From an uncultured Rickettsiales bacterium (lineage in GTDB: Bacteria > Pseudomonadota > Alphaproteobacteria > RF32 > CAG-239), in assembly GCA_900551865.1 (NCBI GenBank), contig URXV01000003.1:11079-75078 (forward strand): a stretch of 64,000 nt of DNA. Direction: 5' to 3'. The notes beneath the pieces are model-generated. The model was not told the DNA's origin. It saw nothing but the letters and a program-made list of their open reading frames with translations, and did not search any database. A program made the position numbers and the translations under genes. Shown one piece after another: positions 27,710-40,464 of the stretch. The stretch's first letter is position 1. Each line of letters begins with the position of its first letter.

Positions 27710-28420
27710 TTAAGCCGTCATAAGCAGAGTTCTGACAAATTCCGGCAGCGTTTCTTCCGCTTTGCCTAAAACCAGACGGTCAAAACAAACGCTGTTTGTC
27801 GGTGGTTCCAAATTAAAAGCAAGTGTTTTGGCGCCGTTTTTCCAAGCTTCCCAGGCAAAACGGGAAGCGGGAGGAATTTCTCCTGACGTTCCGACTGCAA
27901 CGAATAGGTCGGCGCAGCGCAGCAGTTCTTTCGCAACAGAAGTGAACATTATTTCTTCGCCGAAGAAGACAATGTCCGGCCGCAGCGATTTCTCGGCGCG
28001 GCAAAAAGGGCAGGGCGTTTCAGCCGTTATATCGTCCCATGTTTCCCAGGCATTATGGCAATGAGAGCATCGGATTTTGTTAATTTGCCCGTGAATGTGA
28101 TACACGTTTTCGCTGCCCGCCTTTTCATGCAGGGTATCCATGTTTTGCGTCAGGATATATACTTCTCCTGAATAGCCCTGTTGTAGCCAGCTGATTGCCA
28201 AATGGGCGGCATTGGGCTTTGCTTCGGCCATTTCTTGCCTTAAACCGTTATAAAAGTCAAGCACGTCACTGCGCCGTAGCGAAAGGGCTTCCGCCGTTGC
28301 CACCTCTTCGGGATTGCGGTTGTTCCACAAACCGTTTTTTCCGCGGAAGAGCGATAGCCCGGATTCGGCGGAAATGCCGGCACCGGTCAGAAATACAATT
28401 TTACGGTATTGGAATTGCAT
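27710..28420 (-). CDS. cobB: NAD-dependent protein deacylase, Sir2 family (short CobB-type)
   Basis: GAGISAESGL, TQNMDTLH and HG motifs with a CxxC...CxxC zinc ribbon. Confidence 0.85.
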   Translation of the reverse strand: MQFQYRKIVFLTGAGISAESGLSLFRGKNGLWNNRNPEEVATAEALSLRRSDVLDFYNGLRQEMAEAKPNAAHLAISWLQQGYSGEVYILTQNMDTLHEKAGSENVYHIHGQINKIRCSHCHNAWETWDDITAETPCPFCRAEKSLRPDIVFFGEEIMFTSVAKELLRCADLFVAVGTSGEIPPASRFAWEAWKNGAKTLAFNLEPPTNSVCFDRLVLGKAEETLPEFVRTLLMTA

Positions 28421-28430
28421 AAATTTGGGC

Positions 28431-28492
28431 TTTTTTTAACGAGGTTGGCTCCTTTTAGCCCATTCCTTCGTGAAACAGCCGTTTGCCGTTTC
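28431..28492 (-). promoter_or_regulatory. Conserved two-hairpin leader element, copy B
   Basis: The reverse complement aligns with 39726-39792, with 14/14 and 16/16 identical blocks. It ends 10 nt before the cobB ATG. Confidence 0.45.
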
Positions 28493-28545
28493 AAAATAAT
28501 AAAACATATATTTATCAGAATAAGCGTATAATACGTTTTTTATAC

Positions 28546-28603
28546 CGTTTGTCAACAAAATATCCAAATCAGATGCCGGTGGCGAAACAGATGTTGACAA
28601 ACG
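28546..28603. promoter_or_regulatory. Divergent promoter pair embedded in a perfect 12-bp inverted repeat
   Basis: CGTTTGTCAACA and TGTTGACAAACG each contain TTGACA. The plus strand reads TTGACA-N17-TACAGT and the minus strand reads TTGACA-N16-TATTAT. Confidence 0.45.
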
Positions 28604-28668
28604 TTCCGGATTTGGCTACAGTTCGCAGCGGTTCGTTGTTTATCCAAAGCAAATAAAAGGAAATCAGG

Positions 28669-29598
28669 ATGCTATTTGAAAAAGCGGCAATTTTGGGCAT
28701 TGGCTTAATCGGCTCTTCGCTTGCCCGTTGCCTTAAGCAAAACGGCGATGTTAAAACGCTGGCTGTTTACGATGAAAATTCTGCCAACTTGCAAAAAGCC
28801 CGCGAACTGGATTTGGCCGATATTTATGCCGGTAATCTGTGCGAAGCCGTCAAAGACGCCGATTTAGTCGTGTTCGCCACACCGGTCTGCGCATTTGGCG
28901 CGTTGGCGCGGGAGAGTGCGCCGTTCCTGAAAAAAGGAACAGTCATTACCGACGTCGGTTCGGTTAAACAATATAGCTTGCGCGAAGTGGAAAAATATTT
29001 AAACCGGCATAACGGTATGGTTGTTGTCGGAGGGCATCCTGTTGCCGGTACCGAAAAGTCCGGACCCGAAAACGGTTTTGCTTCGCTGTTTAAAGGGCGT
29101 TGGTGCATTTTGACGCCGGATGAAAATTCTTCGCCTGATGCCGTTGCCCGCCTGACGGCAATGTGGGAGCATTGCGGCATGAAGGTAGATACGATGGAAC
29201 CTGCACATCATGATAAGGTTATGGCAGCCGTATCGCACCTGCCGCAGCTGATTGCATATTCCATTGTCGGTACCGTTGCCGATTTGGAGGGATATGAACA
29301 TAAGGAAATTATCAAATATTCCGCTGGCGGCTTTCGCGATTTTACGCGTATTGCCGGTTCTGACCCGACAATGTGGCGCGATGTCTTTTTGACCAACAAG
29401 CAGACGGTCTTGGAACTGATACAGCGTTTTGTTGAAGATTTGATCGCTCTTGAACGTAATATTCGCTGGGACGAGGGGGATAAGCTGTTTGATTTGTTTA
29501 AGCGCACGCAGAAAATCCGCAAAGACGTTATCGAGGCCAAACAGGATCAGCCTGAACACGAAAAGCGCATTTTGGAAGAACTTGGCGCGGAATTTTGA
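28669..29598 (+). CDS. Prephenate/arogenate (cyclohexadienyl) dehydrogenase
   Basis: Rossmann motif ILGIGLIGSS, the GGHPVAGTE catalytic region and SHLPQ motif. Confidence 0.85.
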   Translation: MLFEKAAILGIGLIGSSLARCLKQNGDVKTLAVYDENSANLQKARELDLADIYAGNLCEAVKDADLVVFATPVCAFGALARESAPFLKKGTVITDVGSVKQYSLREVEKYLNRHNGMVVVGGHPVAGTEKSGPENGFASLFKGRWCILTPDENSSPDAVARLTAMWEHCGMKVDTMEPAHHDKVMAAVSHLPQLIAYSIVGTVADLEGYEHKEIIKYSAGGFRDFTRIAGSDPTMWRDVFLTNKQTVLELIQRFVEDLIALERNIRWDEGDKLFDLFKRTQKIRKDVIEAKQDQPEHEKRILEELGAEF

Positions 29599-30216: not shown

Positions 30217-31110
30217 ATGAAAAAGCGCCTGATAGCAATCGTCTTTGTTCTGATTGCCGCGTTCGGCGTGTTATGTTACGGCAGCAGATACCGCCGGCAG
30301 AAAACGCCGGCGGTATCTGTGGTTATGCTTACCTATCAGCGGGCAGAAATGCTGCCGCAGGCGATAGAGAGCATTTTGTCACAGACTTTTTCTGATTTTG
30401 AATTTATCATCATAAACGACGGTTCATCGGACAACACCGACGAAGTTGTCGCCCGCTGTGATGACCCTCGTGTTCGCTATTATCGCAATGACCGTAACCG
30501 GGGAATTGCTTTTTCCCGCAACCGTGCCGCAGCGTTGGCACGCGGAAAATATGTTATGATAATGGACGACGATGACAAAAGCCTGCCGACCCGGATGGGT
30601 GCGCAGGTGTCGTTTCTGGAAAGCCACCCGGAAATAGCAGCTGTTGCCGGGCAGATAAAAGGGCTGCCGCGCATTCCGCAAAATCATGACGAAATCGCCG
30701 CCGGGCTGATACAGTATAACAATTTCGGCAATGCCAACGTGATGTACCGCCGCGATTTTGCCGCAAAACATAATATCCGTTATGACGAGGGGCTGAAAGC
30801 GTCCGAAGACTGGGACTTCTGGTTGCAGATTCTGTTTGCGGGCGGGAAACTGGCGGCGTTGCCCGAGGACGTATTGGAAAGGAACGGCGCCAGCACAAAA
30901 TATTACGGCATCAGTTACGAGGAAGCCAATGCTGCCGTCCGCAAAAAAATTGGCAAAGCCTTTCTGCCGGAAAAACCGGATGCGTTTTATGCCGCCGACA
31001 GTTGCGGTAAATTAAAACTCATCTCTGAAAAGAATATCTTTTCCCCGGTTTTTACGCAAAAGCTTTTTGATATCAACTGTCCTGCCGCGGCGTCTCCAGC
31101 AGTTCGCTGA
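30217..31110 (+). CDS. Glycosyltransferase family 2
   Basis: VSVVMLTYQR...IIINDGSSDNT...MDDDD motifs. An N-terminal TM segment is present. Confidence 0.85.
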   Translation: MKKRLIAIVFVLIAAFGVLCYGSRYRRQKTPAVSVVMLTYQRAEMLPQAIESILSQTFSDFEFIIINDGSSDNTDEVVARCDDPRVRYYRNDRNRGIAFSRNRAAALARGKYVMIMDDDDKSLPTRMGAQVSFLESHPEIAAVAGQIKGLPRIPQNHDEIAAGLIQYNNFGNANVMYRRDFAAKHNIRYDEGLKASEDWDFWLQILFAGGKLAALPEDVLERNGASTKYYGISYEEANAAVRKKIGKAFLPEKPDAFYAADSCGKLKLISEKNIFSPVFTQKLFDINCPAAASPAVR

Positions 31111-31795
31111 CAAATTGCGGCAGCGTATCGCCGGCCTTGCCCATAATATGCCTGTCAAAATAGAAGTTGTTTGACGTCGGCTCAAGATTAAATTCAAGTG
31201 TATCAGCCCCATAATACTTGGCTGTCTGCACAAATCCGGCTGCCGGATAAACCACTCCGGACGTTCCCACGGATACGAACAGGTCCGATGTGCTTAAAAG
31301 CCTTTCCACCTTATCCATATACAAGAGATTTTCGCCGAAGAAAACGATATTGGGCTTCATCATTCCCATAATATGGCAGTTTTCGCAAACCGTTTCCGAG
31401 GTAACGTCGCCCCAGGTTTCCAGAACGTGCCCGCAGTTCATGCAGACAGCCTGGTTTATTTGCCCGTGGATATGGATGACGTTTTTGCTTTTGGCTTTTT
31501 CATGTAAGATGTCGATGTTTTGCGTTATGATATGAATTTCGCCCGGATACTCCTGCTGCAACCGTGTAATTGCCAGATGTCCGGCGTTGGGCTTCGCGTT
31601 CCACAGTTCAGGTTTCATGTTGTTATAAAAATCGTGGACGTAATCTTGGTTGCGATAATATGCTTCAATTGTTGCCACATCTTCAACACGGTGGTTGTTC
31701 CACAGCCCGTTTTCGCTTCTGAACGTGGCGAGGCCGGATTCGGCGGAAATTCCCGCCCCGGTTAAAAACGTGATTTTTTTATACGTTTTGCGCAT
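31073..31795 (-). CDS. cobB: NAD-dependent protein deacylase, Sir2 family (second paralog)
   Basis: GAGISAESGL, TQNIDILH, HG and CxxC...CxxC motifs. The 3' end overlaps the convergent GT2 gene by 38 bp. Confidence 0.85.
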   Translation of the reverse strand: MRKTYKKITFLTGAGISAESGLATFRSENGLWNNHRVEDVATIEAYYRNQDYVHDFYNNMKPELWNAKPNAGHLAITRLQQEYPGEIHIITQNIDILHEKAKSKNVIHIHGQINQAVCMNCGHVLETWGDVTSETVCENCHIMGMMKPNIVFFGENLLYMDKVERLLSTSDLFVSVGTSGVVYPAAGFVQTAKYYGADTLEFNLEPTSNNFYFDRHIMGKAGDTLPQFVSELLETPRQDS

Positions 31796-31887
31796 TTTTT
31801 TCCTTAAATCTTTTCTTAAACAATTTAAGATATATGTAACACAAAACGTTTGGTTAGCAACCTTTTTATGAAACGGAGAACAAAATT

Positions 31888-39445: not shown

Positions 39446-39725
39446 TTTGTAGGAATCTGATGTTGCAGCCGAAAAGACAGTCCTGACAGCAGAGAAAAAA
39501 GATACCATTTTTTTCAACGTTTTTCAAGTAAAATCTTTTATTTGTAATCAATATGTTAGGTATATGAACTTTTGGTTGTAAAAATGGTACAATTAAAATC
39601 TACAATGTAAGTATATGTGTATTATTAAAAAGGTTTTCATGGTTTTGATTTGGGGTTAGTTCTTCGGTCAGGGTTGTGCGGATTTTTTTAGTATGTATAT
39701 ACGATAAAATAAAATTTATTAACCC

Positions 39726-39792
39726 GAAACAACAGTCCCTGCGGCGTTGTTTCACGAAGGATTAGGGACAGGCCCGAACCTCGTTAAAAAAA
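39726..39792 (+). promoter_or_regulatory. Conserved two-hairpin leader element, copy A
   Basis: GAAACAAC/GTTGTTTC hairpin, then CGA(A)GG...CCTCG hairpin, then A7. It ends 9 nt before the ATG at 39802. Confidence 0.45.
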
Positions 39793-39801
39793 TCAAAAAT
39801 T

Positions 39802-40464
39802 ATGAAGATGTTATTATTAGCAATGGAGACAGGCAAAATCAGTGAAAATGATACAGTATCTTTAATCCAGACCGGACTTGAATGTAATGTACTTACGACT
39901 GACGAGTTTGTAACAAGCATGTTTGGAACGTGTGAAACAGAAGAGGAACAGTATGGGGATACCATTTTTGATACGGAGTGGGTAACCATACTTCGTCAGG
40001 GGGCTTTTCTGAAGTTTTCCGCTTCATCTCAGCTAAAGCTTTTATCATTGTTTGATCGAAGAAATTTGATTACATGTATTAGCCGCAGCTTTGACGATAT
40101 AGGAATAGCTTGTTTATCAAAAGAAGATGTCAGCTATCTGAAAGGCCTTGCCACACACTGTTTATTGGATATACTAACGATAGACTTAGTGAACGCCAAT
40201 CTGAGTAAGTTCCAAGCGTTCTCTTCCGATGACAAATTGTGTTTTATCCCTAACAAGATAAAGTGCGAAGAGACATTCAGACAAGAGTTGGATTATAAGC
40301 GAATGCTAAGTTACGGCCTATTACCGGAATTTTGCTATGATGTTACGTCTTACGGAATTCCGCTGGAATGTGCCGTGTGGTGTGAGCGATATATTCTGGA
40401 ACATGGCTTCACTGGTTGTATTAAACAGAGTCTATTAAACTGTATCAGAGAATACACCGTCTAG
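39802..40464 (+). CDS. Hypothetical Cys-rich cytoplasmic protein in an AT-rich patch
   Basis: ORF of 220 aa with about 11 Cys and no signal peptide. I recognise no family. Confidence 0.45.
   Translation: MKMLLLAMETGKISENDTVSLIQTGLECNVLTTDEFVTSMFGTCETEEEQYGDTIFDTEWVTILRQGAFLKFSASSQLKLLSLFDRRNLITCISRSFDDIGIACLSKEDVSYLKGLATHCLLDILTIDLVNANLSKFQAFSSDDKLCFIPNKIKCEETFRQELDYKRMLSYGLLPEFCYDVTSYGIPLECAVWCERYILEHGFTGCIKQSLLNCIREYTV

Follow-up and report, generated by a model that had tools for sequence, protein, structure and literature searches.

A putative Shine-Dalgarno-independent translation leader recurs ahead of a second Sir2/CobB gene and unrelated genes in an uncultured alphaproteobacterial family

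We showed that the second Sir2/CobB gene of an uncultured Rickettsiales bacterium carries, at the usual position of the ribosome-binding site, a leader element of about 75 nt (copy B). On balance and with moderate confidence, copy B is read as a cis-acting RNA that serves as a Shine-Dalgarno (SD)-independent module for translation initiation and its control. Its RNA structure, its constant spacing to the ATG, the lack of an SD and its confinement to one of the sirtuin paralogs are shown here; where transcription starts, how translation is affected and what binds the hairpin are inferred. As an RNA family the element is new; it is of a general kind already known, the structured translational leader, and its mechanism is a proposal. 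Positions are those of the window, that is, the whole 64,000-nt stretch of DNA that was analysed.

Results

Copy B lies at 28418-28494 on the minus strand and ends in the Sir2 start codon. Read from 28494 to 28418 its sequence is UUGAAACGGCAAACGGCUGUUUCACGAAGGAAUGGGCUAAAAGGAGCCAACCUCGUUAAAAAAAGCCCAAAUUUAUG, the last AUG of which starts a 236-aa ORF; this ORF matched Pfam PF02146 (E=3e-41), and its translation shows the catalytic HG motif and a CxxC...CxxC zinc ribbon. The features of this locus and of the two sites compared with it are listed below.

28550..28555, minus strand: -35 box TTGACA, found by consensus scan
28528..28533, minus strand: -10 box TATTAT, 16 nt past the -35 box
28495..28508, minus strand: motif UAUGUUUUAUUAUU, immediately 5' of P1 and inside the predicted 5' UTR
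28472..28492, minus strand: P1 hairpin, GAAACGGC / GCUGUUUC, 8 bp including one G-U, loop AAACG
28439..28471, minus strand: core hairpin of P2 and P3, matched by model R2; RNAalifold recovers both helices
28471..28465, minus strand: P2 5' strand ACGAAGG, pairing as ACG-A-AGG / CCUCGU
28444..28439, minus strand: P2 3' strand CCUCGU
28460..28457 and 28450..28447, minus strand: P3, GGCU / AGCC
Between P2 and P3, minus strand: internal loop of copy B, AAUG / AA
28456..28451, minus strand: apical loop AAAAGG
28447..28456, minus strand: SD-like AAAAGGAGCC, formed by the apical loop and the P3 3' strand
28431..28438, minus strand: U + A7 tract, with A7 at 28437..28431
28421..28430, minus strand: SD-less spacer GCCCAAAUUU
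27710..28420, minus strand: second Sir2/CobB paralog, 236 aa, ATG at 28420..28418
31073..31810, minus strand: conserved Sir2 paralog with its SD, ATG at 31795, AAGGA at 31805..31801 (5 nt upstream), without the element
39724..39804, plus strand: copy A, preceding a 220-aa protein with no Pfam match

P1 and P2 directly adjoin in copy B (linker of 0 nt), and from CCUC the leader runs through GUU, A7 and GCCCAAAUUU, 20 nt in all, to the ATG. The sequence-only reading had regarded this site as the same element as that at 39726-39792, here on the minus strand, and the comparison bore this out. In the alignment with copy A (39724-39804) the blocks GUUUCACGAAGGA and AACCUCGUUAAAAAAA were identical. 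Two models were used, R1 for the whole element and R2 for the 40-nt core without the ATG; copy B scored 84.3 bits with R1 (E=1.4e-20) and 37.8 bits with R2 (E about 9e-6, match at 28430-28471), far beyond chance. An exact-pattern search of the 1.3-Mb assembly returned copies A and B and a third at C7:60771-60852, and the reversed-pattern control gave 0 matches in the same assembly.

Searching with R2 yielded 61 copies. Of 36 genus genomes 18 had the element, some with as many as 5-7 copies, and in a sample of 151 genomes of the order it was found in 8 of 20 genera, all 8 within the same family. No convincing match was obtained in the other family of the order (one genome) or in 24 other families of the class (single genomes; best E=0.07). 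At the gathering threshold no Rfam 15 family, including preQ1-I, SAM-II/V, NAD+-I/II and the guanidine classes, matched the element, and local Rfam scans of copies A and B at E<=10 gave noise only. The Rfam matches in the window were two tRNAs and two sRNAs, all outside the element; the sRNAs, both at gathering level and on the plus strand, were rpsB (RF01815, 24529-24644, 45.4 bits) and ffh (RF01793, 42374-42425, 39.7 bits).

The genes behind the element were mutually unrelated, with Sir2 as the steadiest partner within the genus. Many encoded small membrane proteins of 41-137 aa; others encoded RGNHEEIM-type repeat proteins, a 276-aa CLCLPRSG family and, in another genus, secreted proteins of about 230 aa. 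For one element-bearing gene the protein N-terminus was presumably MYG1-like, judged by eye. Genes for small membrane proteins also occurred in tandem, each with the element, for example at G027:C68:11007-11715 (L011), where two leaders lie 630 nt apart; four element copies were seen on one contig of another genome (G015:C12). The tandem small hydrophobic proteins, all with the element, look like an expanding family.

Comparison of the 61 copies gave a common architecture, in which P1 is followed by the core hairpin, (G/A)UU, a run of 6-9 A, an SD-less spacer and the AUG. P1 is an optional and variable hairpin. P2 has the family form (A)GAGG/CCUC(U), of which AGG/CCU was invariant (60-61 of 61 copies); because it is invariant, the upper P2 is silent on pairing and would speak neither for nor against it. 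P3 measured 2-4 bp across copies, and the apical loop ended in AGG, usually as AAGG or CAGG, in nearly all 61 copies, its columns being conserved at 90% or more.

The pairing of P3 was examined in a model-derived alignment, which was fitted to the structure and is biased in its favour. There, all three P3 pairs showed compensatory changes (GC, UG, AU, UA, CG); 93% of the P3 cells were paired, against 24-57% when the 3' partner was slid by 1-3 columns, and the covariation score was matched by 0 of 500 column shuffles. RNAalifold, run independently on the same alignment rows, again returned P2 and P3. The inner pairs of P1 covaried as well, one of them being GC in 16 and AU in 11 copies; since the copies are phylogenetically related, all such counts overstate independence. 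In other genera unrelated P1 hairpins stood in the same place (e.g. GAGAU-ACU-AUCUC), and minimal sirtuin leaders of other species were without P1. Because of the compensatory changes in P1 and P3 and the strict specificity of strand and position, the element is an RNA feature, and the proposal of a cis-acting RNA made from the window sequence gained support from these changes and from the ATG that follows every one of the 61 copies.

The majority internal loop between P2 and P3 was AKUA/GAA, with AUUA/GAA in most copies and exact AGUA/GAA, the sequence expected of a possible bulged-G loop E or sarcin-ricin motif, in several. Neither was present in copy B, which has the minority variant A(A/G)U(G) / (C)AA; its own loop is shared by the ortholog L041 and is similar to the AGU(G)/(C)AA form of L012, L015, L033 and L038. 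The lower core score of copy B (37.8 bits) results from this variant loop, and by its overall score (84 bits, R1) it is a clear family member. A likeness of a few copies to the 23S sarcin-ricin loop (AGUA...GGACCGAA) was rejected, since P3 covaries without keeping a conserved sequence. A resemblance of the antisense strand to a tRNA T-arm (GAGGTTCG) was put down to chance, as tRNA genes match the same word.

The unpaired nucleotides (GGA-U-UAG, AGG, GAACCUC) were nearly invariant across 8 genera. Such conservation exceeds the needs of a simple standby hairpin and suggests a specific partner of the RNA.

Although R2 contains no start codon, an ATG opening an ORF of at least 35 codons followed 61 of 61 R2 matches. 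In the 58 distinct copies 17-23 nt separated the end of CCUC from the ATG (18-20 nt in 46), and the A-run, of 6-9 nt (exactly 7 in 38), ended 6-12 nt upstream of the ATG. GGAG, GAGG, AGGA or AAGG at -18..-4 was found in 0 of the 58. In the same genome an SD 4-mer occupied this interval in 59% of 1,068 gene starts called by a crude method, its position peaking sharply at -11/-12, compared with only 11.5% of internal in-frame ATGs as a control; the genome clearly uses SD elsewhere, as read from this peak in an assembly that lacks the 16S 3' end. The AAGGAG in the loop and P3 3' strand of copy B begins 34 nt upstream of the ATG (first A) and ends 28 nt upstream of it (last G), with no SD any closer, in agreement with the earlier remark that it is too distant to act as one unless the structure shortens the gap.

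Partition-function folding of 60 leaders gave a mean unpaired probability of 0.6-0.78 for positions -18..-3, while the 3' strand of P2 was mostly paired (0.13-0.23 unpaired) and the apical loop was exposed. Because of the start geometry, the lack of an SD and the predicted folding, the element appears to be complete in itself as an SD-less initiation region, its 5' half structured and its 3' half open and A-rich.

Upstream of copy B the predicted sirtuin promoter TTGACA-N16-TATTAT (28555..28528, minus strand) has 11 of 12 consensus matches. TTGACA-N16/17 followed by TATTAT, TATGAT, TATATT, TATCCT or TATGCT was found in most of the second-paralog loci listed from other species, and the hexamers were kept even where the Sir2 proteins were only about 55% identical to that of copy B. 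The -35 box lay 52-84 nt upstream of the conserved hairpin across these loci. With a start assumed 7 nt past the -10 box, the predicted 5' UTRs were 62-100 nt long; that of copy B was about 100 nt, with transcription predicted to start near 28521 and the whole element inside. Thus the divergent promoter and the leader of roughly 100 nt that had been proposed from the sequence both hold as predictions, the promoter recurring in most second-paralog loci.

The sirtuin promoter and the divergent tyrA promoter have -35 boxes that together make up a perfect inverted repeat of 12 bp (CGTTTGTCAACA / TGTTGACAAACG, at 28546-28557 and 28592-28603), which could be a shared operator. A terminator scan of 28380-28700 found no terminator-like site; the hairpin precedes an A-run, not a U-run.

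The motif immediately 5' of P1 recurs in the sister leaders as (A)UAUGUYUAUUAUU, about 25 nt 3' of the promoter -10 box, and it is probably transcribed there because it lies that far downstream of an extended -10 promoter. In copy B the AUG of this motif starts a 23-codon uORF, MFYYFETANGCFTKEWAKRSQPR, which crosses P1-P3 and terminates at the UAA of GUUAAAAAAA, 15 nt upstream of the Sir2 AUG. Its counterpart in other species reads MSYYFED or MFYYSEE and terminates at the internal-loop UAG. A conserved leader peptide was rejected, since frame (II versus YY) and length (6-39 codons) vary and the AUG is missing in some genera. It looks as if the nucleotide motif UAUGUYUAUUAUU is conserved, not a peptide.

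In 25 distinct non-sirtuin leaders, including that of copy A, an extra module of about 100 nt stood between the motif and P1. Its first 28 nt contain ...GUUUUUCAUARUUU..., complementary to -12..+8 of the leader's own gene, some 150 nt downstream. Predicted duplexes between this arm and the start region reached -14 to -20 kcal/mol, and their mean was -13.6 kcal/mol for native and -9.9 kcal/mol for swapped partners (25 leaders, Mann-Whitney p=8e-6, a value that overstates independence as the loci are related). The pairing tracks differences between the genes, with CAUGG/UUAUG via G-U in copy A and CAUAA/UUAUG in L011. These results point to control of start-codon access in the long leaders, and because the 5' arm would pair with the start codon across the element, the element is probably transcribed in them.

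Upstream of copy A (39600-39725, plus strand) the long leader comprises an extended -10 promoter (TGnGGTATAAT-like), the motif and the arm ..GUUUUCAUGGUUUUG... The same type was seen at G000:C7 (L004) and at about 23 loci in relatives. After the arm the long leaders have a G-rich hairpin and a U-run, the region of which gave a weak Rfam FopS match (14 bits).

In the sirtuin-type 5' UTRs no masking arm was found (-4.2 kcal/mol native versus -3.9 kcal/mol swapped). Nor did the hairpin with 40 nt upstream pair preferentially with its own start region (4.4 pairs native versus 5.2 swapped, p=0.89). A self-masking switch was rejected for copy B, the swap tests being negative for both the core leader and the sirtuin-type 5' UTRs. 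Copy B thus appears in these models as a bare leader, consisting of promoter, motif, P1, core, A-tract and AUG with no start-codon mask; hiding and exposing of the start codon is supported by modelling for the longer leaders, not for copy B.

For copy B ViennaRNA preferred an alternative fold (UGGGCU/AGCCCA plus GGAAU/AUUCC) at -23.3 kcal/mol, compared with -20.7 kcal/mol for the family fold. It was rejected, as it is lost in the closest ortholog except for a part within shared coding sequence.

In most genomes of the genus Sir2 is present twice, the two genes being separated by about 3 kb. In a maximum-likelihood tree of 39 Sir2 proteins a slow clade of 27 (100/100 support) was separated from 12 long-branch sequences; the Sir2 of copy B is one of the long-branch sequences and falls outside the clade of conserved paralogs, and the paralog at 31073-31795 is a member of the 27-gene clade. 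The element preceded 0 of the 27 conserved genes, which have a normal SD (AAATTGTTTAAGAAAAGATTTAAGAGG-N3-5-ATG), whereas among the 12 second-paralog genes of the tree 11 are SD-less and carry the element. The view that only one of the two deacylase genes of the window carries the element, and the one at 31073-31795 does not, therefore applies genus-wide. Among the element-bearing second paralogs are the Sir2 genes of L041 and of G018, the latter missed by the genome-wide model.

When five second-paralog genes outside the tree were added, the hairpin was present in 12 of 17, and all 17 were SD-less. The five hairpin-less genes were G029:C19 (L112), which is in the tree, and the divergent second copies G034:C30 (L113), G020:C9 (L136), G024:C3 (L137) and G032:C18 (L142), which are outside it; each has an SD-less, AU-rich leader and a TTGAC-type -35 box. 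Long N-terminal extensions are apparent in three of the five proteins. The remaining gene outside the tree, G010:C3:48442-48918 (L020), has a degenerate hairpin (GAAUGA for GAGGA), and its Sir2 appears frameshifted, with a 60-aa ORF from the leader ATG and the Sir2 frame resuming separately.

Because the five hairpin-less genes are SD-less too, the hairpin is not the sole enabler of SD-less translation. It would rather be an addition to an already SD-less leader, and it may be purely regulatory. The Sir2 family is a natural experiment, since paralogs with an SD and paralogs with the element can be compared across the genus.

Discussion

The following course of events is proposed for copy B. 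The leader would be transcribed from TTGACA-N16-TATTAT as the 5' UTR of the second Sir2/CobB gene, and its open A-rich single strand would act as the landing site of the 30S subunit, in the manner of an A-rich, S1-type enhancer. The base of the hairpin, 17-23 nt 5' of the ATG, would lie close to the mRNA exit point of the 30S subunit; situated at the upstream edge of the ribosome footprint, the hairpin would serve as a docking or standby and control element. Its reader may be the ribosome itself or a separate factor, either protein or RNA; a specific reader is suggested because the unpaired nucleotides are nearly invariant across genera.

The reader of the hairpin is also the point at which this proposal differs from the most serious alternative, with which it otherwise overlaps and which we consider unlikely but worth real weight. 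There, the hairpin would be the operator for a lineage-specific trans regulator, an RNA-binding protein or a small RNA, that places the accessory genes in one post-transcriptional regulon and merely gates the A-tract and ATG. The near invariance of unpaired positions across 8 genera and the unrelatedness of the downstream genes are consistent with it, and so are the five hairpin-less sirtuin leaders, in which the hairpin would be dispensable for translation. The GGA/AGG in the hairpin loop and flanking strand resemble CsrA sites. However, CsrA (PF02599) was detected in 0 of 24 genomes of the genus and not in G000 (76% complete), while the E. coli, B. subtilis and T. maritima controls were detected, and CsrA was rejected as the reader of the GGA loop. 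For a trans sRNA, short antisense words to the conserved blocks matched in the genome only the three copies themselves or gave non-specific matches, so that this candidate was rejected as well.

A bolder form of the preferred reading ranks below the trans regulator and is put forward as speculative. The hairpin and A7 would together be a self-contained, IRES-like substitute for the SD, with the 30S platform, S1 or the tail bearing the anti-SD as its direct reader. A family of gut Alphaproteobacteria with small genomes would set it, as a portable cassette, before accessory genes that evolve fast, and in many copies the 150-nt long-range start-codon mask would gate it.

The remaining explanations have little probability. 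An mRNA stability or processing element, either a protective 5' stem-loop or an RNase E-type site with no direct role in initiation, is improbable: the hairpins do lie near the predicted 5' end and an A/U-rich single strand beside a stem is a typical RNase E context, but the fixed 17-23 nt to the ATG, the absence of an SD and the loop conservation would be left unexplained.

A small-molecule riboswitch, in which the hairpin and the A-rich tail would form a preQ1-I-like pseudoknot or triplex gating the start site, seems more improbable still, although the sirtuin gene might hint at an NAD-related ligand. The element is small, it has a conserved internal loop and an A-rich 3' tail beside the start codon, and in copy B the near-isoenergetic alternative fold would place UGGGCU/AGCCCA just 5' of the ATG. 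On the other hand, even at E<=10 the Rfam scans gave no match, the loop has no conserved pseudoknot partner, native pairing between leader and start did not exceed swapped pairing, and the alternative pairing of copy B was not retained in the closest ortholog. Since the downstream genes are unrelated and share no metabolic theme, and since no alternative fold is conserved, a metabolite riboswitch is unlikely.

Least probable of all is a signal in the DNA, with the A-run (TAAAAA) as a -10 box or the inverted repeat as a repressor site on a nearly leaderless mRNA: the A-run resembles a weak -10 box and a second TATTAT lies within UAUGUUUUAUUAUU just upstream of P1, but a strong consensus promoter stands further upstream in most loci, the compensatory changes in P1 and P3 are those expected of paired RNA and not of a protein-bound DNA repeat, and this covariation together with the long-range pairing of the 5' arm across the element in the sister leaders, by which the element would be transcribed, makes such a role unlikely.

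The preferred reading, an SD-independent initiation and control module, has partial counterparts among known systems. In E. coli, rpsA, fis and rplY are translated efficiently without a true SD by means of AU-rich enhancers and specific 5' UTR structure (PMC4408793). The element resembles them in the lack of a true SD and in the combination of an A- or AU-rich single strand with 5' UTR hairpins. The rpsA hairpin loops reportedly carry GGA. Each of those leaders is specific to one gammaproteobacterial gene and is autoregulated through the ribosomal protein of that gene, whereas the element is a portable module that stands before many unrelated genes of an alphaproteobacterial family, folds differently, has an A7 at fixed spacing and shows no sequence similarity to them.

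A-rich upstream sequences promote SD-free initiation in E. coli reporters (PMC7043885), and such A-rich, Kozak-like signals are reported (PMC7043885, PMC6847099) as unstructured and situated within about 15-20 nt upstream of the ATG in genes that lack an SD. These are diffuse preferences, while the element is a discrete A7 with a conserved hairpin in an SD-using host. With preQ1-I (RF00522) the element has in common a short stem of the (A)GAGG/CCUC(U) type and an A-rich tail beside the start site, but it lacks an Rfam match at E<=10, its 'loop' holds a covarying inner helix, a conserved loop-tail pseudoknot is absent and its genes are not queuosine-related. In CsrA/RsmA leaders, too, a hairpin loop displays GGA/AGG and another GGA is close by; in the element, the GGA sites lie outside any SD, and the CsrA gene was found in none of the 24 genus genomes.

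Ribosome standby (PMC5934652) supposes an open landing region beside structure. The MS2 coat and tisB systems of standby and masking resemble the element in the landing region beside structure and, for the sister leaders, in the distant 5' arm that pairs with the start codon; copy B differs in having no masking arm, and its standby role is putative.

Conclusion

Structured translational 5' leaders are well known, and a portable module that replaces the SD before unrelated genes has no counterpart in Rfam. The element offers a natural system for the study of SD-independent initiation in a bacterium that otherwise uses SD. It marks a post-transcriptionally distinct set of genes, comprising the second sirtuin and small membrane, repeat and secreted proteins, in a common, uncultured gut lineage. 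Across the genus the two sirtuin paralogs would be expressed by different rules, which fits with a separate, conditionally used role of the second, fast-evolving sirtuin.
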